Shown: positions 38,531 to 58,183 of the stretch, piece by piece
Layout: the number at the start of each line of letters is the position of its first letter
Numbering within the stretch: the first letter of the stretch is position 1
Source of the DNA: Patescibacteria group bacterium
GTDB taxonomy: Bacteria; Patescibacteriota; Patescibacteriia; UBA10025; JBIOWE01
Direction of reading: 5' to 3'
Assembly (NCBI GenBank): GCA_044868145.1
Contig: JBIOWE010000006.1
Coordinates: 14,558-78,557 of the forward strand
DNA length: 64,000 nt
Notes under the pieces: model-generated
Seen by the model: the letters and a program-made list of their open reading frames with translations, nothing else
Told to the model about the DNA's origin: nothing
Databases searched by the model: none
Program-made: the position numbers and the translations under genes

Positions 38531-39361
38531 GACACGCATTGTCATTTGAATTTCCGTGCGTTCAAAGACGACGTTGACGAGGTTGTGAAGCGCACCCTTG
38601 ACGCGGGCATGAAAGTCATCAACGTAGGTTCGCAATATTCGACGAGCAAGCGCGCGGTTGATTTGGCGTGCCAGCATATCCGGCAATTGTACGCGGCCGT
38701 GGCGTTGCATCCCATTCATTTATTTGACGTGGAAGTGGACGAAGACGAGGTAAAGTTTCACTCGCGCAAAGAAGAGTTCGACCGTAAACAGTATGAGGAG
38801 TTGGCGAAAGACCCCGGCGTGGTGGCCATTGGCGAGAACGGCTTGGATTATTACCGGTTTCCCGAAGGCGTTGATCAAAAAGAAGTGATTGCCAAGCAAA
38901 AGGATACGTTTCGCAAGCATTTGGACCTGGCACGCGATTTAGAGCTGCCGTTTATTGTGCATTGCCGCAGCCCAAAGCAAAAGCCCGATTGGGCCTATGA
39001 AGATATCGTCGAGATTTTGAAAGAATATCCGGGCATGCAAGGCGTCATCCATTGCTTCACCGCAAGCATTCCAGTCGCGCGTCAGTTTTTGGACATTGGC
39101 TTCCATATTTCATTCACCGGCATTATTACGTTTCCGAACGCCAAAGATTTGGTGGAAGTGGTAAAGTACGTGCCGCTCGATCGTATTCTCGTGGAAACGG
39201 ATGCGCCGTACTTAGCGCCACAGCAATATCGCGGCAAGCGGAATGAACCATTGTACGTCCGTCATGTGGCAGAAAAGATTGCGGAAGTAAAGGGTGTAAG
39301 CTACAACGAGGTTGAAGCGCAAACCACGAAGAACGCGGTTGCGTTGTTTCGTCTAGAATGA
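38522..39361 (+). CDS. tatD: TatD family metal-dependent hydrolase/DNase
   Basis: MLVDTHCHLNF, HCFT and DAPYL motifs. Confidence 0.85.
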   Translation: MLVDTHCHLNFRAFKDDVDEVVKRTLDAGMKVINVGSQYSTSKRAVDLACQHIRQLYAAVALHPIHLFDVEVDEDEVKFHSRKEEFDRKQYEELAKDPGVVAIGENGLDYYRFPEGVDQKEVIAKQKDTFRKHLDLARDLELPFIVHCRSPKQKPDWAYEDIVEILKEYPGMQGVIHCFTASIPVARQFLDIGFHISFTGIITFPNAKDLVEVVKYVPLDRILVETDAPYLAPQQYRGKRNEPLYVRHVAEKIAEVKGVSYNEVEAQTTKNAVALFRLE

Positions 39362-39507
39362 CCTCCCACCGCCCCTGAGCCATTACCTCCCCTCTGGAAT
39401 GTATGCGCTAAAAGATGGAACGCATGACTCCCCTCCTTGGTAAGGAGGGGAAGAAAGTACGACGCACAATAATTTAAATTGAGAGCGGAAGGGGCGGTGG
39501 GAGGTCA
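39358..39507. repeat. Structured repeat, family A/B/C (copy A) flanked by an 18-bp perfect inverted repeat
   Basis: TGACCTCCCACCGCCCCT ... AGGGGCGGTGGGAGGTCA arms enclose a core TTACCTCCCCTCTGGAATGTATGCGC...ACTCCCCTCCTTGGTAAGGAGGGGAAG...ACGACGCA. The core is shared with the copies at 51115 and 56127. Confidence 0.6.
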
Positions 39508-39551
39508 CGGCTCATTGTTTTCGTACTCTATCTGCGTTACAATAAGCCCAT

Positions 39552-40586
39552 ATGGACACCGCTTCAATTATTTTATTAGTGATCGTCGTCGTTGGCTTTG
39601 CCGTACTCATTTGGCAATCGAATCGCAAAAAGCCGGACGTGGGCAAGGATAATTCCGTGCTCCTGATGCAAAACCAATTGAACGAAATCAATCGCACGCT
39701 GGACCAGAAGCTCGGCGAATCGGTGAAACACATGCAAAACCAGTTCGGCCAGTCCGCGAAAATCATCCAGAACGTTACGGAAAAACTGACCAAGCTTGAC
39801 GAAACGAATCGCCAGGTTGTCGGATTCGCGGATCAATTGCGCAATTTGCAGGATATTTTGCAGAATCCGAAGCAGCGCGGCATCCTCGGCGAGTATTATC
39901 TGGAAACCGTGTTGAAGAACGTTCTGCCGCCGAAAAGTTTTCAAATGCAATATAAGTTCAAAGACGGAGAAGTCGTTGACGCCGTGGTATTCGTGAAAGA
40001 CCGCATTATCCCTGTTGATTCGAAGTTTTCGCTTGAGAATTACAATCGCATTCTCGCGGCGCGGGACGACGAAGAGCGGCAGAACCTGGAAAAAGTGTTT
40101 AAGCAGGATTTAAAGAACCGCATTGACGAAACCGCGAAATACGTTCGGCCAAGCGAAGGCACGATGGAATTCGCGTTCATGTTTATCCCGAGCGAGGCGA
40201 TTTACTACGATTTGCTCGTGAACCAAATCGGCGCGATTAAAGTGAATACCCAGGATTTGATTCAATACGCGTTCAAGGATAAGAAAGTGCTGATCGTGTC
40301 GCCGACCACCTTTCTTGCGTACTTGCAAACCGTGTTGCAAGGGCTTCGCGCGCTGCAAATCGAAGAGTCCGCCAAAGAAATCCAGCACGGCGTCGAATTG
40401 CTCGGCAAGCATTTATCCAGTTATCAGGTCTACTTCAATAAGGTCGGCAATTACCTCGGCAGCGCCGTTGGGGCGTACAATAAAGCAGGCGACGAGTTCC
40501 GCAAGGTGGACAAGGACGTGGTGAAAATCACGGGGCAAGGTGTTGGCTACGAGCAGCAGATGCTGGAAAAGCCGCGGGAGGAGTAG
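39552..40586 (+). CDS. rmuC: DNA recombination protein RmuC
   Basis: N-terminal TM helix, a long coiled coil and the RmuC-like C-terminal domain (GEYYLETVLKNVLP...FAFMFIPSEAIYYDLL). Confidence 0.7.
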   Translation: MDTASIILLVIVVVGFAVLIWQSNRKKPDVGKDNSVLLMQNQLNEINRTLDQKLGESVKHMQNQFGQSAKIIQNVTEKLTKLDETNRQVVGFADQLRNLQDILQNPKQRGILGEYYLETVLKNVLPPKSFQMQYKFKDGEVVDAVVFVKDRIIPVDSKFSLENYNRILAARDDEERQNLEKVFKQDLKNRIDETAKYVRPSEGTMEFAFMFIPSEAIYYDLLVNQIGAIKVNTQDLIQYAFKDKKVLIVSPTTFLAYLQTVLQGLRALQIEESAKEIQHGVELLGKHLSSYQVYFNKVGNYLGSAVGAYNKAGDEFRKVDKDVVKITGQGVGYEQQMLEKPREE

Positions 40587-40612
40587 CAAATCGATTCATT
40601 TGGTGGCAATGT

Positions 40613-40963
40613 ATGAAACGAATAGTAATTATAATAGCCGCACTCCTGCTGGGTATCAGTTTAACAGTAGTCACGCGGCACGCGGAAAGCCTTTATCCAT
40701 TAGGCGAACCAGTTGAAGGCGCAAGTAATATCCAATTTATTGGCTGGCCTATAGCCACCGGCTGCAAAAACACACAGGAAGTTCAGCCGACGGAAGATGG
40801 GGGTACAATTTTTCTTTTGATCCCATGTCGTTACGTTTTGTTAGGGGGAGCAAATCTCATATTGAATGGATTATTTTTGAGCCTCGCATCGTTTGGTCTT
40901 ATTTTGTCGCTTGATGCGGTTGCTACGGCCATGATGAGACACAAGAAGCCGAGGGAGGAGTAG
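40613..40963 (+). CDS. Hypothetical secreted/membrane protein
   Basis: Signal peptide plus a C-terminal TM helix. Confidence 0.3.
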   Translation: MKRIVIIIAALLLGISLTVVTRHAESLYPLGEPVEGASNIQFIGWPIATGCKNTQEVQPTEDGGTIFLLIPCRYVLLGGANLILNGLFLSLASFGLILSLDAVATAMMRHKKPREE

Positions 40964-41093
40964 CCAGCCGTCAGCCATTCAGCCTTGCAGCCACACAGCG
41001 CCCGAAGGCAGTTTTTTTATCCCTTTACATCTCAACAAGGAACGTGATAAAATTGTTGAAACCATTATAGAACTTTAACAAAAGGAGGATTTC

Positions 41094-41636
41094 GTGGAGT
41101 TGATCAAAAAAATCAGAACCCTTCTGGGACTGCAGGTTACTGCTCAAGCGGGCGATCTCGCAGACCCGAGCAAGTTGCCGAAAAGCACCGATGAGGTCAA
41201 GGTCGTAGAGCAAGCGGACGAACTGCGGATGTATCCGTGCGGCCATGAGGGGCCAGCCTCGTTCCAGCTCTCTCTTTATGGGGAGTTATGGAAGGAAATG
41301 CATGAAGAAAAAGAATGTCCAACATGCTGGATTCAAAGAATCAAAAAGCATGTGATTCGCTGCGCTCTCTGCGGTCTGCCCATTTTCCCGGGTGAAGGCG
41401 TCGCCGTCTATCACAAATCAAGCGAGGGGTTGCGCCTTAAGATTGCCACATACGTGGGCAAGGAAACCGTACTCGGCTGTATGCGCTGGGATTGTTGCCC
41501 TTCCGGCGGATTCTTTGGAGGCCGCTGGACCGAACAAGGGTTCAAATCTCTTTTTGAGGGAAGAACAGCGGCGGAACAGGCGTATGTAAAAGACACCATG
41601 GTTATCGGCGACGTGGAAGAGGACAAGCAGGAATAA
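41094..41636 (+). CDS. Hypothetical Cys-rich protein
   Basis: Several CxxC/CC pairs with no family I can assign. A terminator hairpin at 41645-41678 follows. Confidence 0.3.
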   Translation: MELIKKIRTLLGLQVTAQAGDLADPSKLPKSTDEVKVVEQADELRMYPCGHEGPASFQLSLYGELWKEMHEEKECPTCWIQRIKKHVIRCALCGLPIFPGEGVAVYHKSSEGLRLKIATYVGKETVLGCMRWDCCPSGGFFGGRWTEQGFKSLFEGRTAAEQAYVKDTMVIGDVEEDKQE

Positions 41637-41720
41637 GAATGACAACGGCTATAGCATTTGTGCATAGCCGTTTTTTCTATCCTTCAAAAACCCAGGGGAA
41701 AATGGTAGAATGGAGGTACT

Positions 41721-42077
41721 GTGAAGTCAAGCACTATCGAAGAAAAGCAATCTTCAGCCCAAGCGAGGGTAGCATCGATCCAACATCATATTAATTTTGT
41801 CGGTATCGTTTTGGTTGTATTGCTTATTTTGAGTGTTCCATTCCGCGCGTCGACCACAACGTTGTACATAGCACATTGGATTGATACTGTTATTGGCTAT
41901 ATTGTAATCGCCGCGTTCGTGTTTGGCGTTTTGCTAGGTATCAATTTACTCGCTCGGAAGAAACAGGCGGAAGCGCACATCGCGAAGAATCTTATCGTTT
42001 GGAGTATATGCATATTTATCTTCCTCGCTCTGCTGAGCACCTCGATTATCCCCTCCAACCCGAGCGGAATCCAATAA
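41721..42077 (+). CDS. Hypothetical membrane protein
   Basis: Three TM helices. Confidence 0.3.
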   Translation: MKSSTIEEKQSSAQARVASIQHHINFVGIVLVVLLILSVPFRASTTTLYIAHWIDTVIGYIVIAAFVFGVLLGINLLARKKQAEAHIAKNLIVWSICIFIFLALLSTSIIPSNPSGIQ

Positions 42078-42084
42078 TAATTTC

Positions 42085-42402
42085 ATGACTTTTTTGCAAA
42101 AACATGCCGCGCTCACCTTTATGCTGCTCTACCTCGCAGTCGGTTTGGGCTATGCGGCAATCGGCGGGATGATACATCCTGATTCTGATATCGGCTGCGT
42201 CCTCTGCTTCCAGGGTATCTTCCCCTGGCTCATCATCGACCTGCTCTTCTGGCCCCTGTTTCCTTTTTTCAGTATTATGACTGGGATCATGGCTGTCGAT
42301 CCGATCCTCATGGTTGAGGGCTTCATGCAGCTTGTGATTATTGCCATCGTGTTCATTGGCTGGGGAGCTGTGGTGAAGCTTCCTAAGAAGAAAACAACAT
42401 GA
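42085..42402 (+). CDS. Hypothetical membrane protein
   Basis: Three TM helices. Confidence 0.3.
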   Translation: MTFLQKHAALTFMLLYLAVGLGYAAIGGMIHPDSDIGCVLCFQGIFPWLIIDLLFWPLFPFFSIMTGIMAVDPILMVEGFMQLVIIAIVFIGWGAVVKLPKKKTT

Positions 42403-42474
42403 TGCTTGATCAGCATTAGTTTTTTCGGTGGGGCATACCCTTGACATATATTATAATCGCATTATAATACACCC

Positions 42475-42714
42475 ATGACCCAAAAAGTTCTCCGCGTCGG
42501 CAGTTCCGCTGGCATCACGATTTCGAAGGAAGCGCTCAAGGCCTTAAAAGTTCGGGCTGGTGATTCGGTTGTAACCACAGTCTCCGAAAAGCTCGGCATT
42601 ATGGTCGTGAAGTCTTCAAAAAATCATACCTCCATTGACCTCGACATTATTGCCTGGACGAAAAGTTTTTTAGAGCAGTACGGGGATGATCTAAAGGCAT
42701 TGGCCAATAAGTAG
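42475..42714 (+). CDS. AbrB/MazE/SpoVT-type swapped-hairpin DNA-binding protein (putative antitoxin/regulator)
   Basis: VLRVGSSAGITISKEALKALKVRAGDSVV matches the looped-hinge-helix pattern. About 79 aa. Confidence 0.5.
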   Translation: MTQKVLRVGSSAGITISKEALKALKVRAGDSVVTTVSEKLGIMVVKSSKNHTSIDLDIIAWTKSFLEQYGDDLKALANK

Positions 42715-42851
42715 CCCCACTTGGCTGAAGCGGAACAGTCGACGGATGCGGCGGTAGCAAGGTTTTTTTCTTCGCTTCAAAAACCGTCGGGGAAAGCCTT
42801 GTTGGCCGATTTTCATTTGGTTGCGCGATTCTTGCGCGATCTAGAAATCCC

Positions 42852-42908
42852 ACTTGACACTACGTCATAATCTTATATAATCTTATATAGTCAGAATATA
42901 AGATTATG
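42852..42908 (+). promoter_or_regulatory. Promoter with a 13-bp perfect palindromic operator overlapping the -10 box and the fic start codon
   Basis: TTGACA-N17-ATAATC. Palindrome CATAATCTTATAT ... ATATAAGATTATG; the ATG of the Fic gene lies inside the right arm. Confidence 0.5.
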
Positions 42909-43970
42909 GTATTACAAAACACCAGGTTTGACAGGCGAATTCAACGGATAGCGCCTCTCATATTATCCTCCATCGCGCAGATCGATGAATTAAAAGGGCA
43001 GTGGATTTCCGGAGCGCGGTTGAGTCCGCAAACGCTCGGCCGGCTGAAGCGGGCCGTTCTGTTGACGTCAACCGGCGCATCAACGCGCATCGAAGGCGCG
43101 AAGCTTTCTGATGAAGAAATCGAGAAGCTACTCCGTGGTCTCCGCGTGGAGAAGTTCGCCGATCGCGACAGCCAGGAAGTGAGGGGTTATTATGAACTCT
43201 TGAATAATGTTTTTGATTCATGGAAAAAGATTCGTTTTTCCGAGAGCAGCGTAAAGCATTTTCACAAGGAACTGTTGAAGCATGTGGAGAAAGATGTGCG
43301 GCATCGTGGTGAATACAAGAAAATGGAAAATAGCGTCAACATGGTTGATACGAATGGAAACGTCGTCGGCGTTATCTTTAAGACGACGCCTGCATATCTG
43401 ACTCCGAAAGAAATGCGGGAAATTATGGAATGGACCACCAAAGCGCTCACGGAAAAACACTATCACCCTTTGCTCGTCATTGCGAACTTTCTCGTGGAAT
43501 TTCTCGCGATCCATCCGTTTCTCGATGGGAACGGCCGACTTTCTCGCATCCTGACGAACCTCCTGCTCTTGCAGGCCGGGTATGCGTATGTGCCATACGT
43601 TTCGCATGAAAAACTCGTCGAGACGAATAAATCGGACTACTATCTCGCGCTTCGGCAAAGTCAGAAAACGTTCAAAACCAATCAAGAAAACATAGCGCCG
43701 TGGCTCACGTTTTTCCTCAACATCTTCTCTGTGCAATCGAAGAGAGCCGTTGATTTGTTGTCAAAAGAAAACGTGGAAAAGATTCTGTCACACAAACAGC
43801 TCGCGGTTTGGCAATATCTTCAAACAGTAGCTGAAGCGTCACCAAGGGAAATTGCCGAACACAGCCGAGTCGCGCGCCCGACCGTCAACCAAGCGCTCGA
43901 TAAGCTTCTTCGCTTGAAGAAAATCGAGCGGCTTGGGGAGGGGAGAAGTACGAGGTATCGGAAGATCTAA
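42906..43970 (+). CDS. Fic family protein (Fic/Doc fold) with C-terminal winged-helix domain
   Basis: Canonical Fic motif HPFLDGNGRLSR. A C-terminal HTH region follows (PREIAEHSRVARPTVNQALDKLLRLKKIER). Confidence 0.85.
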   Translation: MVLQNTRFDRRIQRIAPLILSSIAQIDELKGQWISGARLSPQTLGRLKRAVLLTSTGASTRIEGAKLSDEEIEKLLRGLRVEKFADRDSQEVRGYYELLNNVFDSWKKIRFSESSVKHFHKELLKHVEKDVRHRGEYKKMENSVNMVDTNGNVVGVIFKTTPAYLTPKEMREIMEWTTKALTEKHYHPLLVIANFLVEFLAIHPFLDGNGRLSRILTNLLLLQAGYAYVPYVSHEKLVETNKSDYYLALRQSQKTFKTNQENIAPWLTFFLNIFSVQSKRAVDLLSKENVEKILSHKQLAVWQYLQTVAEASPREIAEHSRVARPTVNQALDKLLRLKKIERLGEGRSTRYRKI

Positions 43971-44117
43971 TTGTATTTAATAATAAAGGTGTTTTTACCT
44001 GAACTCTTTAAGGTGTAAAGAAAAAGTTAATTTATCAACTCCCGTCTCTACAATGAGGAATTGATTTTTTGATGGAAAAGTGGGAGAATGAGTATAGATT
44101 TACAATAAGAAAACAAC

Positions 44118-45242
44118 ATGGCAGGAGAACGAAAAATCTTCTTCGTAGTAGCAACGGGTGGTCAATCAACCCAGGAGCATTATGTCGATACGATTAAGAA
44201 TAAGCGGACGATAGACGAAGCTGCTCGTTTTTTAGATCCGCAAGATGCAAAAAAGTTGAATGAAAAAATGCATGGCCAACCTTTTGCAGTGTGGGGTGCC
44301 GTGCCCGGAGAACGGAACAATCCAACATGGGAAACAATGGAGGAGGGGGACTATCTTTTAATCTATCGTGAAAGCAAAATTATTCTTGCGGCCGAGGTGG
44401 CGCTGAAAGTTCGCAATCCGCGCCTAGCGAAACACTATTGGAAAGAAGACGTCAACGGAAAAACATGGGAGCTCATGTTTTTCTTGTACAACGAGAATGA
44501 GGTCAATGTTCCAATGAAGCGGCTCAACACCTACCTTGGATATGCGGAAACGTATCACCCGCAAGGATTTATGGCCATTCAGCAAGAGAAAACCGATGCC
44601 CTCCTTTCTCAATACGGCGATCTATTGTCGTTCTTATCTCGTATAGAATCCGGCCAGAAGCCGGAAGCCATCGATGTCGACAGAAAGAAAGTCTTTAATC
44701 AAGTTGTGGATGAGAAAGTGGAGCGAGCACCAACCGAGCATGATGAAATGCAGTGGCGCTTGATTCGTCTCGGTAATAAAGCACACCTCGACGTTTGGGT
44801 GCCGCAAAATGATCAACATCGTAGCTACGATGGTCATGAGTTTCGTCAGTTTGTTATCCCTAAGTTTCAAGAAGCGATTGACGTCCCGGCTTATATTAAG
44901 AACATCGACACAGTCTGGAAACTCGGATTATCGATTAAGTCAGCTTTTGAAATAGAACATTCCACCTCGATTTATTCAGGGATCCTCCGCCTCTCGGACT
45001 TGCGCTCCTTAGCGCCGAACTCAAATTATCCTTTGTTTATTGTATCGTCGCCGGAACGAAAGTCGAAAGTTTTTGAGCAGTTACGCCGCCCGACATTTGC
45101 AAATGAGTATCTACAACTCGATCGCGCAGTGCGGTTTCTCTCATATGACGCGGTCCGTAAGCTCGACGAGGACCTAAAAGATGGGAATGTTGGGTTTGAT
45201 TTGGCATGGCTGACCGAGCGGGCGGAGGGTGTGTCAGCATAA
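44118..45242 (+). CDS. Protein with N-terminal EVE/PUA-like domain and uncharacterised C-terminal domain (possible nuclease)
   Basis: N-terminal FAVWGAVPGERNNPTWETMEEGDYLLIYRESKIILAAEVAL fits the EVE pattern W-GVRN..ARN.L..M..GD..FFYHS...IVGIAEV. The C-terminus has D/E-rich strands (HLDVWV, AFEIEHS) but no clean PD-(D/E)xK. Confidence 0.4.
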   Translation: MAGERKIFFVVATGGQSTQEHYVDTIKNKRTIDEAARFLDPQDAKKLNEKMHGQPFAVWGAVPGERNNPTWETMEEGDYLLIYRESKIILAAEVALKVRNPRLAKHYWKEDVNGKTWELMFFLYNENEVNVPMKRLNTYLGYAETYHPQGFMAIQQEKTDALLSQYGDLLSFLSRIESGQKPEAIDVDRKKVFNQVVDEKVERAPTEHDEMQWRLIRLGNKAHLDVWVPQNDQHRSYDGHEFRQFVIPKFQEAIDVPAYIKNIDTVWKLGLSIKSAFEIEHSTSIYSGILRLSDLRSLAPNSNYPLFIVSSPERKSKVFEQLRRPTFANEYLQLDRAVRFLSYDAVRKLDEDLKDGNVGFDLAWLTERAEGVSA

Positions 45243-45296
45243 GTTGTTGTTCCACTGCCTGGAGCTCGAACGATTTTTTTTCAAGGCAAGTAAAAG

Positions 45297-46847
45297 ATGA
45301 CATACAAAAAAGAAATATACGAAGATTTGATTAATAGTCTTGATATTGGATCCTCAGTTGCAGAACAAGATCGGTTTCTTGAGATAGCCAAAGTTGATAC
45401 ACCCGTATTAAATGATCTAATCGCTGATAGGGTGGACTTAATCTTAGGCATGAAGGGTTCTGGTAAGACAAGCCTATTTCGGCTAGTCATTGCGGCTGCG
45501 GAGCAACTAGAAAAGTACAAAATACTAATTGCTTCCGGGGTCGAGCCGACAGGTAATGCTGTCTTTGCGCAATTCAAAGAGGAGTTCGACAAGTTTTCCG
45601 AAGAGGACTTCGATAATTTTTGGATGATATATATTATTAATCTTGTTTATAATACCTTTATTGCTAAGCCAGAATATCAGCATGAGCTTAAAAAAGTCAG
45701 TAAAGAACGCAGCGATTTTATTAATGAGTCTATTGCTATTGGAGTTCCACAGGTTTCAGGAGTTACCGATTTTAGGAGCTTGGTGAATCGAAGCCTAGAA
45801 GCACTTAGAAACCTCCCCAACGTAAAAAAAATCTCTGCAAGTATGAAGTATGACGCGAAACAGCCAGGACTATTTGAGCCGAAGATTGAAGCAGAACTTG
45901 TTCCTAAACAATCCGGAAAAAAATTACCGATCTACACTACAAAACTCGCCGTGATCCTAAACGGCATTCTGGAAAAAACAGGTTATAAGATATGGATTCT
46001 ACTTGATCGTCTCGATATCGTTTTTGAACATGGGAGCGCGCTCGAGTTTAAGGCACTTAGAGGACTTTTGAAGGCTTATGAAGGTTTTCAGGCTAGCGAT
46101 TCAGCAAATAACAAATTGAGAATAAAGATTTTTCTTCGCTATGACCTTTTTGATTTTTTTACTAGCCCGGAAACATATAAGAGAATTTATAAACACCGCG
46201 GACCACATCTTAGTGCTCTAACTCATATTACGGCACGCGCAACAAAAGATCCCCTACATTGGAATAGAGAGCAAATACAATTATTGATGCTAAAAAGATT
46301 GTTTTTATCAGCTAGTTTAAGAAGCTATTTTAATGTATCTATAAGTGATCTTGAGAAGGAAGAGGTTAGGAATCGGATTTGGGAAATACTTTTTGGAGGT
46401 CAAGTAGATGCCGGCTCAAAAAAACCAGACTCAATGTCGTGGATATATACACGCCTTAGAGATGCAACTCTGTATGTAACGCCTCGTGCGGCTATGGATT
46501 TCCTCGATGGAATGATCTCGGCTCAAAAGAAATCTTTCTTACTTAATAAAGTAGACCAAGAGCACTTTTTTTCATCTACAGCCATCAAAAATGGAATTAT
46601 TGTTTCTTCGAGTCAAAAATATCGGGATGAAACAAAAAATGAGTATCCGGGTATTGTAAAATACATTGAAAAGCTGAGAGAAAAAAAAGCCAGAATCCCT
46701 CTTGCAGATATACAAAAACTGTTGGGTGGTGATTATGAATCTGTTCTTTTGGAATTAACGAAAATAGGTCTAGCGAGTCGTTCTAATGGGGATATTGTTA
46801 TCGCGAATATTTTTCGTCCAGCTCTTAACATTCGTCCACAACTATAA
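45297..46847 (+). CDS. P-loop NTPase (Walker A/B) of unknown family
   Basis: Walker A LILGMKGSGKTSL; Walker B KIWILLDRLDIVFE. The long C-terminal helical region is unassigned. Confidence 0.6.
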   Translation: MTYKKEIYEDLINSLDIGSSVAEQDRFLEIAKVDTPVLNDLIADRVDLILGMKGSGKTSLFRLVIAAAEQLEKYKILIASGVEPTGNAVFAQFKEEFDKFSEEDFDNFWMIYIINLVYNTFIAKPEYQHELKKVSKERSDFINESIAIGVPQVSGVTDFRSLVNRSLEALRNLPNVKKISASMKYDAKQPGLFEPKIEAELVPKQSGKKLPIYTTKLAVILNGILEKTGYKIWILLDRLDIVFEHGSALEFKALRGLLKAYEGFQASDSANNKLRIKIFLRYDLFDFFTSPETYKRIYKHRGPHLSALTHITARATKDPLHWNREQIQLLMLKRLFLSASLRSYFNVSISDLEKEEVRNRIWEILFGGQVDAGSKKPDSMSWIYTRLRDATLYVTPRAAMDFLDGMISAQKKSFLLNKVDQEHFFSSTAIKNGIIVSSSQKYRDETKNEYPGIVKYIEKLREKKARIPLADIQKLLGGDYESVLLELTKIGLASRSNGDIVIANIFRPALNIRPQL

Positions 46848-47799: not shown

Positions 47800-47804
47800 A
47801 GCGT

Positions 47805-47872
47805 TTGACATTGTGAGAACGCAAGCGTACAATGGTAAATAGTAAGCCTTCCCCAAAAGAACGGCTTTTTTG
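47805..47872 (+). promoter_or_regulatory. Family F element: conserved promoter plus hairpin/T-tract (copy 3)
   Basis: TTGACA-N18-TACAAT, then TAAGCCTTCCCC...GGCTTTTTT. It aligns with copies at 56052 and 58184. Confidence 0.45.
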
Positions 47873-48050
47873 TTGAAATAAAACCTAACACCCGTGAACC
47901 CATGAAAAATCTACTTTTCCCGCAGAATGCCATGTGGATAAAGACTCGCTTGACAAATCTGCTGGCGTTGCTATACTTTGGCGTAGTTAATCCCACTGTC
48001 TTCTCCCCGCCTATGGCGGGGGGACGGCAGTTTTTCAAACCTTCAAAAAT

Positions 48051-49489: not shown

Positions 49490-49495
49490 TCCACC

Positions 49496-50395
49496 ATGCG
49501 CAACATTATCACCACCACCTTCCTCACCCTCGACGGCGTCTACCAAGCCCCCGGTGGTCCCGATGAAGACAAGTCGGGCGGCTTTCAGTACGGCGGCTGG
49601 CAATTTGGTAAGTTTCAAGACGAATTAACGGGAAAAATTTTAAGTGGCTGGTTCGCTGCGCCGTTTGAACTTCTCCTCGGCCGAATCACGTATGACATCT
49701 TTGCTGCTTTTTGGCCAACCGCGAAAACTGATCCTGAAGTCGCTGTGCCGTTTAACGCCACAAAGAAATATGTTGTTTCACATGACCTGGGCTTCAAAGC
49801 GGCTTGGAACAACTCCGTTGTTGTGTCCGGAGATGTGGTCACGGAAATCAAAAAGCTGAAAGCGATGGACGGCCCGGATCTGTGGGTGTGGGGGAGTGGC
49901 AACCTGATCCAGACGCTCTTGAAAGCCAACCTGATTGATCGGATGCACATCTGGACACACCCGGTCACGATTGGATCAGGCAAGCGATTGTTTGCCGACC
50001 TGCCTGCGCCGCGGCCGAATATTTTTTACGTATATGTAATACTTTGCGATGACGATTCAATGTATATCGGCCAAACCGAAGATATTCCAAAACGTTGGTT
50101 TGAACATAACGTGGGAAGGGCTGCTGAACACACAAAACGACACAAACCACTTGAAATCATTCACTATGAAGAGTTTATTTCTCGAGAAGCTGCGGTAAAG
50201 CGCGAGCAAGATTTAAAGACAGGGTTTGGCCGAAAATGGCTAAAACACGAGTGGCAAGCCGGCCGGACGCGGCAGGCTGGTGGCACACAACCCGCGTTAT
50301 GGAAACTCGTGGACTCAAAAGTTTCTACCACCGGGGTCATTATTACCACCTACGAATTCAACGGGCCGCTGAAACCGGGGGCGGTGCCGACCTAA
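49496..50395 (+). CDS. RibD_C/dihydrofolate-reductase-like (YwjB family) protein carrying an in-frame GIY-YIG module insertion
   Basis: N-terminal part LTLDGVYQ...LLGRITYDIFAAFWPT...VWGSGNLIQTLLKANLIDRMHIWTHPVTIGSGKRLF, then FYVYVILCDDDSMYIGQTEDIPKRWFEHN (GIY-YIG). The DHFR-like C-terminus resumes at PALWKLVDSKVSTTGVIITTYEF. Confidence 0.6.
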   Translation: MRNIITTTFLTLDGVYQAPGGPDEDKSGGFQYGGWQFGKFQDELTGKILSGWFAAPFELLLGRITYDIFAAFWPTAKTDPEVAVPFNATKKYVVSHDLGFKAAWNNSVVVSGDVVTEIKKLKAMDGPDLWVWGSGNLIQTLLKANLIDRMHIWTHPVTIGSGKRLFADLPAPRPNIFYVYVILCDDDSMYIGQTEDIPKRWFEHNVGRAAEHTKRHKPLEIIHYEEFISREAAVKREQDLKTGFGRKWLKHEWQAGRTRQAGGTQPALWKLVDSKVSTTGVIITTYEFNGPLKPGAVPT

Positions 50396-50530
50396 ATGGT
50401 ATCGAGTGAAACGAAGCTGAAAGCTCCTCACCCCCAATAGCCGCCTTCATCATCTTCGATCCCCGCATCATCAGCGTCACGATAATCAAAAACCGCCTTT
50501 CAGCGGTTTTTGTACTCCTTAAGAGATAGC

Positions 50531-50929
50531 CTACTTCTTCTTTGCTTGCAGAATACTGACGCGGTTGCCTTCGGGATCAGTGAATACTGCCCACAGGCCA
50601 ATTTGCGGAATTTCTTCCGGCTGGCTGACCACGCTTCCGCCCGCATCCGTGACCGCTTTCATGGCTGCCTGGATATCGTCGACGGAAATAACCACTGATG
50701 GCATGGGCGAGACATGTTGTGCCTTTTTGTCATAGAAGCCGCCGTTGATGGTACCGGGCGTTTTGACCATACGATTTTCGTCGGTTTCGGCGGTATGGGC
50801 AGTGACATAGCCACCGTACTCCGGCCCGGTTTTGTCCATTTTCCAACCAAAGGCTTTTTTGTAAAAGGCCGCGACGCGATCTGCGTTTTCGTAGGGCATT
50901 TCGAAATGCACGACAGGGTTGTATTTCAT
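50531..50929 (-). CDS. VOC family protein (glyoxalase/bleomycin-resistance fold)
   Basis: HFEMPYENADRVAAFYKKAFGW... plus a C-terminal paired beta-alpha-beta-beta-beta module. Confidence 0.7.
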   Translation of the reverse strand: MKYNPVVHFEMPYENADRVAAFYKKAFGWKMDKTGPEYGGYVTAHTAETDENRMVKTPGTINGGFYDKKAQHVSPMPSVVISVDDIQAAMKAVTDAGGSVVSQPEEIPQIGLWAVFTDPEGNRVSILQAKKK

Positions 50930-51114
50930 AACGTTGAGCCGGTCAATAATAAGGCTGACCTCATGAGTCTAACACGTTATGGGGATGGCGTGAATCTCGT
51001 TATAGCCGGTTTATGAGCTGCAAACATACTCTATCACAATATTTGACGTCCTCGCCTTCCTCGGGTACATTGAAGACAACAAGCCCTCCCCAAAGAACTG
51101 GGGATTTTTTATTA

Positions 51115-51256
51115 TGATAGCCATTACCGCCCCTCTAGAGCCGTATGCACTTGTACCATGTACGCAAATTATCCCCTCCTTACCAAGGAGGGGATGAGCA
51201 TACGACGTTGCTCGGTTTGATGAGTTGGCCGACGGGGAGGTGATGGGCAGTCCAGC
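51115..51256. repeat. Structured repeat, family A/B/C (copy B)
   Basis: ATAGCCATTACCGCCCCTCTAGAGCCGTATGCAC...ATCCCCTCCTTACCAAGGAGGGGATGAGCATACGACG...GAGTTGGCCGACGGGGAGGTGATGGGCAGTCCA. About 90% identical to copy C over the core. Confidence 0.6.
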
Positions 51257-51294
51257 ATCGTATGACCATTCTATTTAATAAAAGACCGTTATGA

Positions 51295-51615
51295 TCCAGA
51301 CGAAAACTGTTAAGACGGAATGCACCAAAAGCCGAGATTATCCTTTGGCAATGCTTGAAGAATCAACAGCTGGGTCATAAATTCCGCCGTCAGTACAGTA
51401 TCGGCGGATATGTTGTTGATTTTTATTGCCCACAGAAGAGATTTGTCATTGAAGTTGACGGGCCAACACATTTTTCTCGGGGCGTACGGGACTATGATGC
51501 AACTCGCCAGCTATTCTTTGAATCGCTTGGCATGAGGGTCTTACGCGTGACGAACGACGATGTGTATGAGAACGTTCGGGGTGTCGTGGAAGCTATTCTA
51601 CGTTTATTGAAGTAA
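51295..51615 (+). CDS. DUF559/Vsr-like endonuclease-domain small protein (non-ATG start or 5'-truncated)
   Basis: RKLLRRNAPKAEIILWQCLKNQQLGHKFRRQYSIGGYVVDFYC...VIEVDG matches the DUF559 N-terminal motif. The ORF track starts at TTG 51355, but the frame is open from 51295 with no ATG. Confidence 0.6.
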   Translation, partial: SRRKLLRRNAPKAEIILWQCLKNQQLGHKFRRQYSIGGYVVDFYCPQKRFVIEVDGPTHFSRGVRDYDATRQLFFESLGMRVLRVTNDDVYENVRGVVEAILRLLK

Positions 51616-51710
51616 ATCGTTTTTACAATTTGGTATTGACGCGAAGATGATCGTATGCTACCGTAAGGTATTCAATAAACGTTCCTTTCAAACTACAAGG
51701 AGGGATTATC

Positions 51711-51923
51711 ATGAAACAATTCATTGTTATTGAAGCAACCGCACTCAATAATCATAAGAGGCGGGCGCTTACAGGATTCACCTATAATGAAACGGCATTG
51801 CGCGAGTTGGCAAATAACTGGTGGAACACGCCTCTCGACGCTTCGTTCAAAGATATTGCTACGGTAGCGCACAAATCAGGGTTTATGGTGTTCCAGTATG
51901 TACCGCCCAAGAAAAAAGTTTAG
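51711..51923 (+). CDS. Hypothetical small protein
   Basis: 70-aa ORF with a GGAGG RBS. Confidence 0.25.
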   Translation: MKQFIVIEATALNNHKRRALTGFTYNETALRELANNWWNTPLDASFKDIATVAHKSGFMVFQYVPPKKKV

Positions 51924-51989
51924 TCACAAGACTCATTGAAAGTCTCAATGAGTCTTTTTTTTCCTTAAAAAAAAGAGTACAATGAACGT

Positions 51990-53225
51990 ATGATGAAAAA
52001 AATTGTGATCATTGTCAGTATCGTCGTCGTGGCAGGTGGCGCGGTGTATCTTGCGCTCACCAATAACGATTCTCCGATTGTCCAATCCCTCCAAAACGCC
52101 GTTCAGAATAATCAGAACGACAACCAGCAAGATCTCAACAAAGTTTTTAGCCAAGGCAAATGCCAGGGCCAGGACCGCGTGACCTTCACCAGCCCGATGG
52201 TTCGGCCGGAAGATACGGCCTACATTATCCCGCTCGGCCTGATGGTGAAGGGCCATGTGACGCCCATTGACCACCAGTATTATTATCCTAGGAACATGAA
52301 TGCCGGGACAGAGTATCCGGTGTACGCGCCAGCGGACGGCGTGATTGTGGCCGTCGGGCGACACAACCAGCAAGTCGAAAAGCACCTCCAGCAGTTTCAC
52401 TACGATCAGGTCGATGTGGCGATTGAACACTCCTGCCGTAGCTATTCGTTTCTCGGCCTGATGAGCACGCTCGAACCGAGCATCGTGCAGGCGGCCGGCG
52501 GGCTGGAAGAAAATTCAGGAAAAAATGTACGCATCCCGGTCAAGGCCGGTCAAGTCGTCGGCACGGTCGGCGGACACTCACTCGATGTAACGGTCTACGA
52601 TCAGGAGCACACCTTATCCGGCTTCCTCCGGCCGGAGTCCTATCAGACACAAGCCGGCAAGCTCCATATCGTCAATATGTTCGACTACTACGCTGAACCG
52701 GTCAAAAGCCAACTCCTGGCTTTGAACCCCCGCACCATCGAGCCGCGCGGCGGGAAAATCGACTACGACGTTGATGGCAAACTTATCGGCACCTGGTTTA
52801 TCCAAGGCACGAATGGCTACGATGGGGCACAGCGAGATGCATATTGGAGGGGGCATTTGAGTTTTGCGCCGAACGTCCTGGACCCGACGTTCATGATGAT
52901 TTCGATTGGCACATTCAATGGCGAAACGGACGGGTATCAGTTTGGAATCAAGGGCAACGGCCCTGATCCGGCGACAGTCAACATGAGCAGCGGCCTGGTA
53001 AAGTATGAACTGGTTAATCTACAGATTGTCGATGCGAATGGTCAAGGGTTTGGTGGCCCGACAAGCTCCGCCACGGCTATCCACGGGCAACTGCGGAGCG
53101 AGGTCGAAGGCGTGATGCTCGTACAACTGCTCGGAGACCGGCTGCTGAAAGTCGAAACGTTTCCAAGGAAAACCGCGGCCGAGGTTTTTGATTTTACGGC
53201 CAATGCGCAATTATACGAACGCTAA
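51990..53225 (+). CDS. Membrane-anchored protein, paralog family member 1: degenerate LytM/M23-like domain plus conserved C-terminal domain
   Basis: N-terminal TM helix and a Q/N-rich linker. GHVTPIDHQYY...VYAPADGVIVAV...VAIEHS...VKAGQVVGTVGGHSLDVTVYD follows the M23 motif order (HxxxD...GQvIGxvG) but lacks HxH. The C-terminal block is IDYDVDGKLIGTWF...GHLSFAP..DPTF.ISIG...GPDPA...SGLVKY. Confidence 0.5.
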   Translation: MMKKIVIIVSIVVVAGGAVYLALTNNDSPIVQSLQNAVQNNQNDNQQDLNKVFSQGKCQGQDRVTFTSPMVRPEDTAYIIPLGLMVKGHVTPIDHQYYYPRNMNAGTEYPVYAPADGVIVAVGRHNQQVEKHLQQFHYDQVDVAIEHSCRSYSFLGLMSTLEPSIVQAAGGLEENSGKNVRIPVKAGQVVGTVGGHSLDVTVYDQEHTLSGFLRPESYQTQAGKLHIVNMFDYYAEPVKSQLLALNPRTIEPRGGKIDYDVDGKLIGTWFIQGTNGYDGAQRDAYWRGHLSFAPNVLDPTFMMISIGTFNGETDGYQFGIKGNGPDPATVNMSSGLVKYELVNLQIVDANGQGFGGPTSSATAIHGQLRSEVEGVMLVQLLGDRLLKVETFPRKTAAEVFDFTANAQLYER

Positions 53226-53227
53226 GC

Positions 53228-54052
53228 ATGGAATTTTTCAAAAAACATTGGTGGAAATTCGCAGCTGGGCTGTTGATCATCCTCGTCGTCGGGATTTTTG
53301 GTTTGGGACAAGTCAAAAGATACCCAAGCAGTGAAAATATACAAACTCGCTCTACATCAACGGCGCCTAGTCCAAACGCTCCCTACATTACGGCTAATCC
53401 AATTGACCTAAGCCAGATAGAAAAAATTTCAAAATTTCGCAGTTGCGCTGGTCATGATAACTCGGGTCATAATTTCTTTGGAGAAGTCGAGACTGACCGC
53501 TCAATGAAACATTACGTTAAGCCGCTCGCGGCTTTCGATGACGACAAAGCTAGAATCCACTCCCCGTTTGACGGCACCGTGTATTCTGCCGACGGACCGC
53601 ATCCAGAGCTCGGACCCGGCCAGGCCAGAGGCGGATCGCTTGAGCTTATGAGTTCCATGGAGCCACACGCCGTTGTTCTGTTGGGCCATATTACTGCCCT
53701 TGCCGGCTTGAAGAAAGGAGACACCGTGCAATCGGGCCAGCTGCTTGGCTACGCGACTACGAGCGGCGGCAGCGACTTTGATTTGGTACTTCGCGCTATC
53801 AACCAGCCTGGCGCTCAGTCTACTTTCGGCGACACCTTTGATTCGGTGTTCAACCATATGACGCCCCAAGTCTTAGCCGAATATGCCAAGTTTGGCTTGA
53901 CCAAAGACGCCATGTTTTTCAGCAAAGAATTTCGCGATCAACATCCATGTCTGTTTGGAACTGTGGCCGCCGAACCGAACGAGCGCAGCGGCCCACAACC
54001 TGACATCCAAACTTCTCCAGACAATTGGGTCTTTCTTAAGACTCGCACGTAA
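53228..54052 (+). CDS. Membrane-anchored protein, short paralog (degenerate LytM/M23-like domain only)
   Basis: TM helix, then CAGHDNSGHNF...SPFDGTVYSADG...VVLLGHITAL...KKGDTVQSGQLLGYATTSGGSDFDLVL. Confidence 0.45.
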   Translation: MEFFKKHWWKFAAGLLIILVVGIFGLGQVKRYPSSENIQTRSTSTAPSPNAPYITANPIDLSQIEKISKFRSCAGHDNSGHNFFGEVETDRSMKHYVKPLAAFDDDKARIHSPFDGTVYSADGPHPELGPGQARGGSLELMSSMEPHAVVLLGHITALAGLKKGDTVQSGQLLGYATTSGGSDFDLVLRAINQPGAQSTFGDTFDSVFNHMTPQVLAEYAKFGLTKDAMFFSKEFRDQHPCLFGTVAAEPNERSGPQPDIQTSPDNWVFLKTRT

Positions 54053-54068
54053 TGTACAATAATGATGT

Positions 54069-55346
54069 ATGGAATTCCTGCAACTTTTCAAAAAACATTG
54101 GCGGAAAATAGTTAGACTAGTTTTAATCTTGGTCATCATTCTTGTGGGAGCAACTGTTATTTTCTCTCAGCTCAAAAAAACAGGTGAACTGCCACCCGCC
54201 CTTGAGAAATTTGTCACCGGCCGCAACCTAACGGTCGCAGAGCAAGAGGGCAAAAAATATACCAACGGTCGCTGCAGTGGAAATGACGTCAAGCAATTAA
54301 CTCATTCTCCTTTGGCTCCCGAAGATATCACCAATATTCTGCCTTACGGTGGGGTGGTAGGCGCTCACGTTATGCCAATCTCCCACGGCTATATTTGGCC
54401 GGGCAAAATGAACGATCCCCGTGATAAGTACAACGTTTATGCCATGGCCGACAGCACACTTTTTAGTATTTCCAGCCGCTCAGTGAACGTCGATACGGGT
54501 GAAGCGAAGCAGGCAGAATACCAACTACAATTTAGCATCAGCTGCGTGGAGTTTTACTATTACGATCTAATCACTAGCCTCACGCCCGAACTGCAAAAGT
54601 ACCTCGACGAACAACCTAGTCAGAGTCAATTCGGCAATAGTGTTTCCGTCAGCATTCCGATCAAAGGTGGCCAGCTGCTCGGTAAAATCGGCGGCCAGAC
54701 ACTAGATTACGCGGTTTGGGATTTCAACAAAACTTTAACGGGATACATTGTCCCTGAACACTACGAGGAAGACTTTCCCCGCATCCACTTGGTCAGTCCA
54801 TTCGATTATATGAACGATGAGATCAGGCAAACCCTGCTGCCGAAGCTTGCACGCGGCGCTGAACCGATTGAGGGCAAGGTTGACTACGACATTGATGGCA
54901 AACTGATCGGCGGATGGTTCATGGAAGGTTCCGGCAGCTATGGTGGTCTTCATCAAGGCAATGGTCGCTATTGGGCAGGTCATTTGGCCATTATTCCTGA
55001 TTATCATGATCCGACGTTTATGGGTATCTCGATTGGTACCTATATCCCGGAGCAAGAGGCCCAGTTTGCTATCTCGCGCGATGCGCCCGATCCAAGAAAC
55101 ATTGGCGTAGAGTCTGGTTTGGTGAAATATGATTTATATCAGGGCGACCACACCTTAAGTGACGGCGGTATGTGGGATCGTTTTACGCCAGTTAAAGACC
55201 TCAGAGGCAAGACCAACGGGCCGAGCCAGGGCTGTGCGGTGTTTCAGCTGACTGAAGCGCGTAAGCTCAGGGCAGAGTTCTTCCCAAAAAAAGCTTGCGC
55301 ACAAGTAGTCGGATTTACAGTGGCAGCAACGTTCTATGAACGATAA
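54069..55346 (+). CDS. Membrane-anchored protein, paralog family member 3
   Basis: Aligns throughout with 51990-53225 and 59992-61263 (AHVMPISHGYIWP, YAMAD, GGQLLGKIGGQTLDYAVWD, VDYDIDGKLIGGWF, GHLAIIP.YHDPTFMGISIGT). Confidence 0.5.
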   Translation: MEFLQLFKKHWRKIVRLVLILVIILVGATVIFSQLKKTGELPPALEKFVTGRNLTVAEQEGKKYTNGRCSGNDVKQLTHSPLAPEDITNILPYGGVVGAHVMPISHGYIWPGKMNDPRDKYNVYAMADSTLFSISSRSVNVDTGEAKQAEYQLQFSISCVEFYYYDLITSLTPELQKYLDEQPSQSQFGNSVSVSIPIKGGQLLGKIGGQTLDYAVWDFNKTLTGYIVPEHYEEDFPRIHLVSPFDYMNDEIRQTLLPKLARGAEPIEGKVDYDIDGKLIGGWFMEGSGSYGGLHQGNGRYWAGHLAIIPDYHDPTFMGISIGTYIPEQEAQFAISRDAPDPRNIGVESGLVKYDLYQGDHTLSDGGMWDRFTPVKDLRGKTNGPSQGCAVFQLTEARKLRAEFFPKKACAQVVGFTVAATFYER

Positions 55347-56046
55347 TATAAAACAAACAGTTTCTCCAAGGGTAACACCGCGCGTGCCCATGTCCAAGCA
55401 CCGCCTTGAAGCGTTTAGCGACGGTGTGTTTGCGATTGCTATCACCATTCTCGTTCTCAACCTGAAGCTGCCGGAGATCGTCAAAACCGCAAATCTCAAT
55501 CACGACTTGTGGCGCGCGATCGTTGACCAGTGGCCGCGGCTCCTCTCATACGCCATCAGCTTTGGGATCGTCGGGCTCTACTGGGTTGGGCATCACTTGA
55601 TGTTCCACTATATCCGGCACACTGACCGGATGTTTCTGTTTATCAATAATCTCTATTTGATGGTCATCGCATTCATGCCGTTTCCAGCGGCGCTTCTCGG
55701 GCAATACGGAACGACCCAAGCGGCGATCATCGTGTACGCGGCAACGTTGATCGTGGCCGGACAGTTGTTTAATGGCCTGTGGCGTTACGCCACGCGCCAC
55801 CACCGCCTGGTTGATCCGAATCTGTCTGACCGCGTTATTCGTTTAGTCAAGAAGATCATTTCCGTTGCGCCGGTCATTTACCTTGCAGCCATCGGCCTGT
55901 CGTTCATTAATCCGCGACTTAGCCTGATTATGTTTGTCATTACCCCGCTGCTCTACATCGTACCCGGACCAATTGACCGGCTGATGAGCGCGGAAGAAGA
56001 AAACTTACGCTCGAGCGGCAATAACTCGTCACCGCCCAGGGTATAG
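55336..56046 (+). CDS. DUF1211/TMEM175-family membrane protein (putative K+ channel family)
   Basis: RLEAFSDGVFAIAITILVL signature plus a second TM repeat. Confidence 0.7.
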   Translation: MNDNIKQTVSPRVTPRVPMSKHRLEAFSDGVFAIAITILVLNLKLPEIVKTANLNHDLWRAIVDQWPRLLSYAISFGIVGLYWVGHHLMFHYIRHTDRMFLFINNLYLMVIAFMPFPAALLGQYGTTQAAIIVYAATLIVAGQLFNGLWRYATRHHRLVDPNLSDRVIRLVKKIISVAPVIYLAAIGLSFINPRLSLIMFVITPLLYIVPGPIDRLMSAEEENLRSSGNNSSPPRV

Positions 56047-56051
56047 AACTT

Positions 56052-56124
56052 TTGACTTTTTTGCTTTGCTCGCGTACATTGTAAGTAATAAGCCTTTCCC
56101 AATTTCACGGAAGGTTTTTGTTTT
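56052..56124 (+). promoter_or_regulatory. Family F element: conserved promoter plus hairpin/T-tract (copy 1)
   Basis: TTGACT-N18-TACATT, then TAAGCCTTTCCCAATTTCACGGAAGGTTTTTG. Confidence 0.45.
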
Positions 56125-56126
56125 TC

Positions 56127-56263
56127 ATAGCTCTTACCGCCCCTCTGGGAATGTATGCGCTTGTACAAAGTCTGCAGAACTCCCCTCCTTATTAAGGAGG
56201 GGATGAGCGAACGACGCAGTTCAGTGTTGTGAGTTGGCCGGCGGGGAGGTGATGGGCAGTCCA
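56127..56263. repeat. Structured repeat, family A/B/C (copy C)
   Basis: ATAGCTCTTACCGCCCCTCTGGGAATGTATGCGC...ACTCCCCTCCTTATTAAGGAGGGGATGAGCGAACGACG...GAGTTGGCCGGCGGGGAGGTGATGGGCAGTCCA. Confidence 0.6.
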
Positions 56264-58130: not shown

Positions 58131-58183
58131 TTTCCCGTCTGAACGAACGGCATTTTTTTTATAAAAGAGTATACATTGCCTGG

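Follow-up and report, generated by a model that had tools for sequence, protein, structure and literature searches.

Three intergenic copies (A, B, and C) of a ~140-bp hairpin repeat in a 64,000-nt stretch of Patescibacteria DNA (contig JBIOWE010000006.1; here called the window) are a new, spaced-arm variant of the known BoxC/PIT/TM repeats, and they extend this known but unexplained class to the candidate phyla radiation. Across phyla, the arms beside the hairpin of this class mirror the hairpin stem, and DUF559 genes are embedded in such repeats in Patescibacteria, Proteobacteria, Deinococcota, Cyanobacteria, and other groups. We favor, with a probability of roughly 55%, a reading in which the elements would act as DNA, fold when single-stranded, and relate to DUF559 as REPINs relate to RAYT, with copy B and a fourth copy, D, being gene-linked and copies A and C being solo.

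Three window copies share an exact hairpin

When the window was searched with an nhmmer model of copies A to C, only 39378-39506, 51117-51254, and 56127-56263 matched. The sequence and this search thus agree with an earlier note on this DNA, made from the sequence alone, which had placed three plus-strand copies at these sites (Table 1). All three copies carry, without a mismatch, the central hairpin TCCCCTCCTT-N3-AAGGAGGGGA (equivalent to CCCCTCCTT-N3-AAGGAGGGG), which together with the flanking T/A makes up the perfect 10-bp stem that the note had described, here a polypyrimidine/polypurine stem with a 3-nt loop. Allowing up to three mismatches, the hairpin was matched three times in the window, relative to 0.02 matches expected from shuffled sequences. 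The other shared parts named in the note were also found, namely, the block TTACC(G/T)CCCCTCT and the ACGACG 3' of the hairpin in all three copies, the common end CGGGGAGGTGATGGGCAGTCCA of copies B and C, and the perfect 18-bp inverted repeat that bounds copy A and begins at the TGA stop codon of tatD (open reading frame [ORF] 38522-39361). Because the combination of hairpin and ACGACG gave no matches in metagenome and viral contigs, we consider the ACGACG block private to this genome.

The identity of ~90% that the note gave for copies B and C was too high, since we measured an overall 80%, with 84% in the 3' 88 nt and 74% in the 5' 62 nt; copy A is 65 to 68% identical to the other two. All three copies lie between genes, as the note had said, with A after tatD and before rmuC, B before a DUF559 ORF, and C before typA. 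The best relatives of the TypA encoded in the window are from Patescibacteria (74 to 75% identity).

The arms mirror the hairpin stem across phyla

The hairpin was sought in a genome collection that represents each species once, and all figures for the resulting cross-phylum loci refer to the matches listed. The hairpin pattern was present in very many phyla, and the nhmmer model detected the 140-nt flanks of the window copies in none of these loci. An arm, ACCNCCCC, or GGGGNGGT on the other strand, lay within 60 nt of 127 of 146 hairpins, relative to a background of 0.8%. The commonest distance between arm and hairpin was 3 nt. In genomes other than that of the window, the distances formed a continuum, mostly of 3 to 5 nt, with 12 to 23 nt at sites of an inserted small G+C hairpin and 29 to 51 nt in a few loci.

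The arm mirrors, and does not complement, a stem strand, and it varies along with the stem: stem CCTCCCC is accompanied by arm CCCC[A/T]CC, CCCCTCTCC with CCTCACCCC, CTCCTCC with CCACCTC, CCCCCTCC with CC[A/T]CCCCC, and TCCCCCT with TCCCCCT. In a test on 109 of the hairpins, which represented 33 variants and excluded the variant used in the search, the predicted third strand was present at all eight of eight positions, with a gap of 1 to 6 nt, in 68% of hairpins, relative to 3.9% when the predictions were swapped between variants. Read on the G-rich strand, the rule sets G against G-C and either T or A against A-T. Intramolecular triple helices of the class II purine-motif (reverse-Hoogsteen) type follow this rule, and it matches the one published for the BoxC/PIT/TMECO triplex motifs (PMC4666352). 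Since canonical copies of the TMECO pattern were found in the same set of loci as the hairpin variant of the window, the cross-phylum motif is the BoxC/PIT/TM class.

Holder et al. (2015; PMC4666352) described these intrastrand triplex motifs, which had earlier been named BoxC and PIT elements, and gave the TMECO pattern as CCCTCNCCC-N3-6-GGGNGAGGG-N3-GGGNGAGGG. By circular dichroism and nuclear magnetic resonance (NMR), the TMECO single strand folds into a highly stable triplex. The Escherichia coli motif is always intergenic and without strand bias, inverted doublets are frequent, and the sites go along with local instability of the genome (PMC4666352). Our literature search for the hairpin strings themselves returned unrelated papers only.

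Two other explanations for the cross-phylum conservation were rejected. Mimicry of the Shine-Dalgarno (SD) or anti-SD sequence does not account for variants such as CCCTCTCCC and TCCCCCT, which are not SD-like, or for an arm that mirrors the stem instead of complementing it. A G-quadruplex or i-motif does not account for variants with just two G-tracts, which still follow the mirror rule, and a quadruplex has been excluded for TMECO by NMR (PMC4666352).

The window copies have widely spaced arms

The strict (ITxF) definition of a triplex motif combines a hairpin, with a pyrimidine/purine Watson-Crick stem of 6 to 15 nt and a loop of 1 to 6 nt, with a third segment that lies 1 to 6 nt from the hairpin and carries G opposite G-C and A/T opposite A-T with at most one mismatch. 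Copies A, B, and C have a hairpin of this kind (10-bp stem, 3-nt loop), and the family is multi-copy and intergenic (three copies per 64 kb and a fourth in locus L168). The C-rich and G-rich arms of the window copies lie 37 to 47 nt from the hairpin, fit the pairing rule at 7 to 9 of 9 positions (Table 1), and are largely complementary to each other, forming the closing stem of the predicted Watson-Crick folds.

A second metagenome scan yielded elements of the same build in loci L143, L124, and L167; L143 holds two copies, with TTACCACCCCTCTGGAA, the hairpin, and then GGGGGAGGTG. In a set of 10 related elements on at least six contigs (the 5' arm of L169 was not included), the arm distances were near-constant, at 34 to 41 nt on the 5' side and 34 to 47 nt on the 3' side, and the spacers between the conserved blocks were unrelated in sequence. 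RNAalifold recovered only the invariant central hairpin from these elements, with zero compensatory pairs, and 7 of the 10 had a mismatch (G-A or A-A) at the middle position of the arm-to-arm pairing. The hairpin of L170 has a terminal C-G rather than T-A, and its two distal arms, CACCACCCC and GGGGAGGTG, are altered to match, each fitting the rule at 9 of 9 positions; judged by its sequence, this element is one instance of covariation that arm-to-arm pairing alone would leave unexplained.

Like the BoxC/PIT/TMECO class, the window copies combine a homopyrimidine/homopurine hairpin with a segment that mirrors the purine strand, and both are G/C-rich, multi-copy, and strictly intergenic; we also counted as a likeness to the window family that the published class often forms inverted doublets and is widespread across bacteria. 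The two differ in the stem (CCCCTCCTT/AAGGAGGGG in the window, which does not match the TMECO consensus, versus CCCTCNCCC/GGGNGAGGG in BoxC) and in the third-strand segments, which lie 37 to 47 nt off on both sides in the window but 3 nt off on one side in BoxC. Moreover, the window element has one shared hairpin rather than two, its host is a Patescibacteria genome, unlike the published hosts, and the window family is linked to DUF559 whereas the published work reports no linked gene.

DUF559 genes lie beside the repeats in Patescibacteria

The gene next to copy B, copy D, and the homologous cassettes belongs to the DUF559/MTES_1575 family, which has a Vsr-like nuclease fold (structure 3HRL, for Neisseria gonorrhoeae NGO0050). 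The "Vsr-like ORF" that the earlier note had seen after copy B is of this same family; what the note had missed was the triplex core, the mirrored outer blocks, and the attachment to DUF559. The window gene begins with an ATG at 51262 (MTILFNKRPL) and carries an in-frame TGA at codon 11 (51292-51294), across which homology to other DUF559 proteins continues. Since tatD uses TGA as a stop codon, the sequence points to a decaying, nonsense-mutated gene, probably a pseudogene, rather than to recoding.

Locus L168 encodes a DUF559 paralogue (P0125), directly before which lies copy D (nhmmer E = 1.5e-21), and its overlap with the window is limited to this cassette; copy D most likely belongs to the same genome as the window. 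Copy B with its gene and copy D with its gene are 72% identical over 484 nt, and thus a single duplicated unit comprised both element and gene. The note had allowed for the case that no other copies exist and that the three window copies reflect local duplication of flanking genes, which does not fit with copy D and its relatives. The same layout, comprising a promoter-like TTGAC-N17-TAnAAT, a short hairpin, a T-run, the element, and an ATG 11 to 25 nt further on, is shared by window copy B and by L168, L169, L170, and L172. No Y1 HUH RAYT gene was found beside B, D, or the cassettes, the rest of the genome not having been searched for RAYT.

The association extends beyond these cassettes. When the ORFs of 120 listed hairpin loci were clustered all against all, DUF559 emerged as the recurrent neighbor family; the only other recurrent families, ABC transporters and kinases, were rejected as candidates. 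A DUF559 homologue was present in 13 of 167 listed hairpin-anchored loci, with the hairpins 7 to 150 nt from the ends of the gene and often on both sides of it. In the reverse test, in which DUF559 loci were fetched by protein homology alone and hairpins were then sought, C-rich pyrimidine/purine hairpins lay within 150 nt of the gene in seven of seven independent loci, and all 12 such hairpins in ~82 kb adjoined a DUF559 gene.

DUF559 genes and triplex motifs are associated in cultured bacteria and E. coli

A search of PLSDB records with YcjD of E. coli yielded 12 loci from diverse cultured bacteria. The seven protein-fetched loci and 13 more from cultured bacteria were pooled into a set of 20 DUF559 loci and compared with 127 control windows of equal size that lay in the same loci more than 1 kb from the gene. 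A perfect hairpin was present within 250 nt of the gene in 15 of the 20 loci but in only 1 of the 127 control windows (Fisher P = 2e-15). Hairpins with matching third strands flank DUF559 in Sphingomonas, Deinococcus, Sinorhizobium, Klebsiella, Synechocystis, Neisseria, and Photobacterium; the flanking hairpins of Methylobacterium show a weaker third-strand fit (5/7). In Sphingomonas and Sinorhizobium, the gene is enclosed by complete doublets, each composed of an arm, a hairpin, a spacer, a second hairpin, and a second arm, and in Deinococcus, the DUF559 ORF lies between two inverted halves of a triplex motif, with terminal inverted repeats of ~50 nt.

The founding BoxC locus beside E. coli ycjD, itself a DUF559 gene, is among the DUF559-linked sites. 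In E. coli K-12, BoxC/TMECO #9 (1,351,204-239; Holder et al., Table 1) lies ~170 nt past the ycjD stop codon, which is overlapped by a degenerate pyrimidine/purine hairpin, and the interval from ycjD to the BoxC holds a ~24-nt duplicate of the ycjD 3' end. Among complete E. coli genomes, ~38% lack both ycjD and this BoxC and have eefRABCD at the same site; eef is reported to have been lost at least twice, with ycjD found instead (PMC12817139). When BoxC-like matches were counted per genome, ycjD-positive genomes had a median of 19 (range, 12 to 27; n = 37), relative to medians of 5 (range, 2 to 9; n = 15) for B2-type and 13 (range, 12 to 14; n = 7) for O157-type ycjD-negative genomes. This correlation of BoxC number with the presence of ycjD is no more than suggestive and runs along phylogroup. 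In the literature searched, no paper naming DUF559, ycjD, PF04480, or BoxC ties the gene family to the repeats.

Three arrangements were recorded separately. On Deinococcus proteolyticus pDEIPR03 (L184, 3900-4360), each terminal repeat consists of an arm, a pyrimidine/purine hairpin, and the 12 nt CCAGCGTTGCTG, in a transposon-like layout. Long arrays of alternating triplex-type hairpins were seen in Photobacterium sp. GJ3 (L189, 4384-5950; 15 hairpins, starting 64 nt 3' of DUF559) and in Neisseria gonorrhoeae (L183, 4496-5190; 6 hairpins, starting 176 nt 3' of DUF559).

Relation to known mobile repeats and nucleases

REP and REPIN sequences are short palindromic intergenic repeats, often arranged as inverted doublets, that flank a small low-copy gene for RAYT, a Y1 HUH transposase, and their solo copies far outnumber the gene-linked ones. 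The window family resembles this system in having intergenic palindromic repeats and a small nuclease-type gene flanked by repeats that are also scattered. It differs in that the linked gene encodes a Vsr-like PD-(D/E)xK nuclease of the DUF559 family rather than an HUH transposase, in lacking a GTAG-type tetranucleotide, and in its conserved feature, which is a mirror (Hoogsteen) symmetry on top of the hairpin. Mobilization of the window family would be a prediction by analogy with REPIN-RAYT.

The suggestion in the earlier note of a repeat like a miniature inverted-repeat transposable element (MITE) or REP stood in part. The copies belong to a dispersed, intergenic, palindromic family with a further copy (D) and Patescibacteria-like relatives, and they share with MITEs a length of ~140 bp, terminal inverted repeats, intergenic and multi-copy occurrence, and a variable interior. 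They would not readily pass as MITEs in the strict sense: no target-site duplication was visible, no related transposase is linked, and their core is conserved centrally as well as at the ends. The borders of the three copies, which are uncertain for B and C, showed no direct repeat.

DUF559 also shares its nuclease fold with I-Bth0305I, an EDxHD/Vsr-like homing endonuclease of a selfish gene, whose product cuts a pseudopalindromic target beside the insertion site of the gene itself (PMC3239194). Unlike the EDxHD homing endonucleases, the DUF559 proteins are of ~120 amino acids (aa), single-domain, free-standing, and outside introns and inteins, and the sequence beside them is a dispersed repeat, whereas homing endonucleases are found with a unique host gene.

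A proposed DNA element with a candidate cognate nuclease

In the reading that we favor, each element is an expanded, doublet-like form of the triplex class and comprises a central pyrimidine/purine hairpin, a C-rich arm ~38 nt upstream, and a G-rich arm ~40 nt downstream, the arms mirroring the hairpin strands as a Hoogsteen third strand would. When one strand becomes free, as it might from the lagging-strand template, a transcription bubble, or repair, it could adopt either a hairpin that the arms close or one that takes up a third strand; arms 37 to 47 nt away would still be able to form the triplex. The elements would act as DNA rather than RNA. B and D, which lie just 5' of DUF559 paralogues, were duplicated together with them. 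The DUF559 nuclease would recognize, cut, or spread the repeats or home into them. Cutting at the repeats or homing into them is plausible, given that DUF559 has a Vsr-like fold and that a related fold drives homing in I-Bth0305I. We advance more tentatively, with the odds somewhat against it, the specific proposal that DUF559 is the cognate nuclease of the BoxC/PIT/TM repeats, which would recognize the folded single strand and spread or maintain the repeats or home into them, A and C being nonautonomous members and B and D gene-carrying ones.

Several observations weigh against this reading. No third strand lies within 1 to 6 nt of the hairpin in A, B, or C, and the window copies therefore fall outside the strict triplex-motif definition. 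The arms are also imperfect: B, C, and D carry in the 5' arm a G where the rule calls for A/T, and the 3' arm of copy A has a C at the A/T position. No perfect hairpin lies near the gene in 5 of the 20 DUF559 loci, and the BoxC numbers in E. coli track phylogroup as much as they track the presence of ycjD. The orientation of the element between promoter-like module and gene is constant in the five Patescibacteria cassettes, and a transcribed leader would look alike. We know of no strand-transfer activity for the DUF559 fold, so that it could not be a transposase by itself. Finally, triplex formation was detected neither in duplex DNA nor by in vivo dimethyl sulfate footprinting, and Holder et al. 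found no function for the triplex motifs (PMC4666352).

The main alternative, though an unlikely one, is that the element is a cis-acting RNA leader transcribed from the promoter-like module just 5' of it. In such a leader, an SD-like G-rich arm would be masked by the C-rich arm together with the CCCCUCCUU strand, which would hold down translation of a possibly toxic DUF559 nuclease; A and C would be relics of such leaders or would have been put to new use before rmuC and typA. B and C do lie 3' of TTGAC-N17-TACATT modules, and the order and orientation of promoter, element, and DUF559 recur in L168, L169, L170, and L172; however, copy A has no promoter-like module, and typA has its own promoter 3' of C (at 56299), such that the module before copy C precedes copy C only. 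Similarly, the 3' arm, GGGGAGGTG, resembles an SD sequence and precedes the ATG by 11 to 25 nt, but at 22 nt in B, it is too distant for a working SD sequence. The plus strand folds better than shuffled sequences (z = -7.8 for A, -4.3 for B, and -3.8 for C) whereas the minus strand of copy C does not (z = -1.1), yet the related elements show no compensatory covariation and a conserved arm-to-arm mismatch in 7 of 10. Although pyrimidine-motif intrastrand triplexes are possible in RNA, the T/A opposite A-T marks a purine motif, which RNA does not form. Outside Patescibacteria, moreover, the motifs lie on both sides of DUF559, in both orientations, and overlap stop codons, and earlier work on PIT elements saw no promoter or terminator activity (PMC4666352). 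A free-standing small RNA gene family, or membership in a known RNA or terminator class, is very improbable. The low folding energies and the promoter-like module before B and C would fit it, but Rfam 15 gave nothing that overlaps the window copies at the gathering threshold or at E < 10, and no match at the elements of 18 other hairpin loci at the gathering threshold. No intrinsic terminator was listed at the copies, the hairpin being followed by A(A/T)GA..ACGACG with no T-run that would set a 3' end, and structure is conserved in the hairpin only. Short ORFs within the copies are not conserved either; conserved small ORFs were rejected as an explanation, start codons and frames not being common to the copies. 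The small structured RNA family that the earlier note had offered as its other possibility thus found no positive support, with no Rfam match, no compensatory pairs, and unrelated spacers.

Passive structural repeats at fragile intergenic sites, where small accessory genes such as DUF559 gather and the association is indirect, are slightly less probable than an RNA leader. This view draws on the tie between TMECO sites and local rearrangement and on the lack of a function in the work of Holder et al. (PMC4666352), on the E. coli fabI-sapF site being a swap point between eefRABCD and ycjD, and on the promoter-like modules of the window, which precede several small accessory genes. A passive gathering of accessory genes does not readily explain why 12 of 12 hairpins in 82 kb of protein-fetched loci adjoin DUF559 while just 1 of 127 control windows of the same loci has a hairpin, or why no second protein family recurs near the hairpins in the loci listed. 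Element and gene were also duplicated together, DUF559 lies between inverted halves in Deinococcus, and a mirror covariation that spans phyla calls for selection acting on the fold.

Should DUF559 indeed be the cognate nuclease, the system would be a second, mechanistically different counterpart of REPIN-RAYT, would supply a function for a very widespread domain of unknown function, and would account for how repeats that have been known from E. coli since the 1990s arose. If the link to DUF559 is functional, the purpose and multiplication of triplex-motif repeats, and the role of DUF559, become testable by E. coli genetics and biochemistry.

Feature positions and other observations in the window

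The five promoter-like modules of the window (Table 1) consist of TTGAC-N17-TAnAnT, a short hairpin of the CCTTCC/GGAAGG type, and a T-run, and they precede small accessory genes, among them DUF559 (by way of copy B), apart from the one 5' of copy C. Their hairpin stems covary (TCCCC/GGGGA versus CCTTCC/GGAAGG).

Table 1. Coordinates of the repeat copies, their parts, and associated features (window numbering unless another record is named; rule fit, positions agreeing with the triplex pairing rule)
Feature	Position	Strand	Remark
Copy A	39359..39507	+	Solo element between tatD stop and rmuC
Copy A, outer perfect 18-bp inverted repeat	39359-39376 / 39490-39507	+	
Copy A, inner C-rich (5') arm TACCTCCCC	39384-39392	+	Rule fit 9/9
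Copy A, hairpin	39429-39451	+	
Copy A, G-rich (3') arm GGGGCGGTG	39491-39499	+	Rule fit 7/9
Copy B	51117..51256	+	Ends 6 nt 5' of the ATG of the DUF559 gene
Copy B, C-rich (5') arm TACCGCCCC	51125-51133	+	Rule fit 8/9
Copy B, hairpin	51172-51194	+	
Copy B, G-rich (3') arm GGGGAGGTG	51234-51242	+	Rule fit 8/9
DUF559 (Vsr-like endonuclease) gene	51262..51615	+	Directly 3' of copy B; sole DUF559 homologue in the window
Copy C	56127..56263	+	Solo, between promoter-like module and typA's own promoter
Copy C, C-rich (5') arm TACCGCCCC	56135-56143	+	Rule fit 8/9
Copy C, hairpin	56181-56203	+	
Copy C, G-rich (3') arm GGGGAGGTG	56243-56251	+	Rule fit 8/9
Promoter-like module (TTGACG-N17-TACATT, short hairpin, T-run)	51043..51110 (51036-51115 in the set of five)	+	Directly 5' of copy B
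Promoter-like module, as before copy B	56052..56119 (56045-56123 in the set of five)	+	Directly 5' of copy C
Promoter-like module	47803-47873		Precedes NYN gene (48051)
Promoter-like module	58178-58255		Precedes GIY-YIG gene (58254)
Promoter-like module	61930-62002		Precedes 23S_rRNA_IVP gene (62095)
Positions within three paralogous genes	52717-52806, 54838-54927, 60743-60832		
E. coli K-12 ycjD/BoxC features	1705-1740 and 1836-1966		In L178 (NC_000913.3 1349500-1353000)

Three paralogous genes of 411 to 425 aa (ORFs 51990-53225, 54069-55346, and 59992-61263), two of which lie between copies B and C, have no significant Pfam domain and are 64 to 74% identical in DNA over conserved stretches. 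Local segmental duplication was rejected as an origin of copies B and C, which are spaced 5009 nt apart whereas the spacings of the paralogous genes are 2121 and 5905 nt.

The only Rfam matches at the gathering threshold in the window were a tmRNA gene (547-943, minus strand; 95.5 bits) and a tRNA gene (3950-4023, plus strand). A separate 30-nt repeat, ATAGCTTATAGC(A/G)TAT(A/G)GC(G/A)TATGGCTTAT, occurs in two copies that are 90% identical, at 10371-10400 and 38439-38468, the second of which lies just 5' of tatD.

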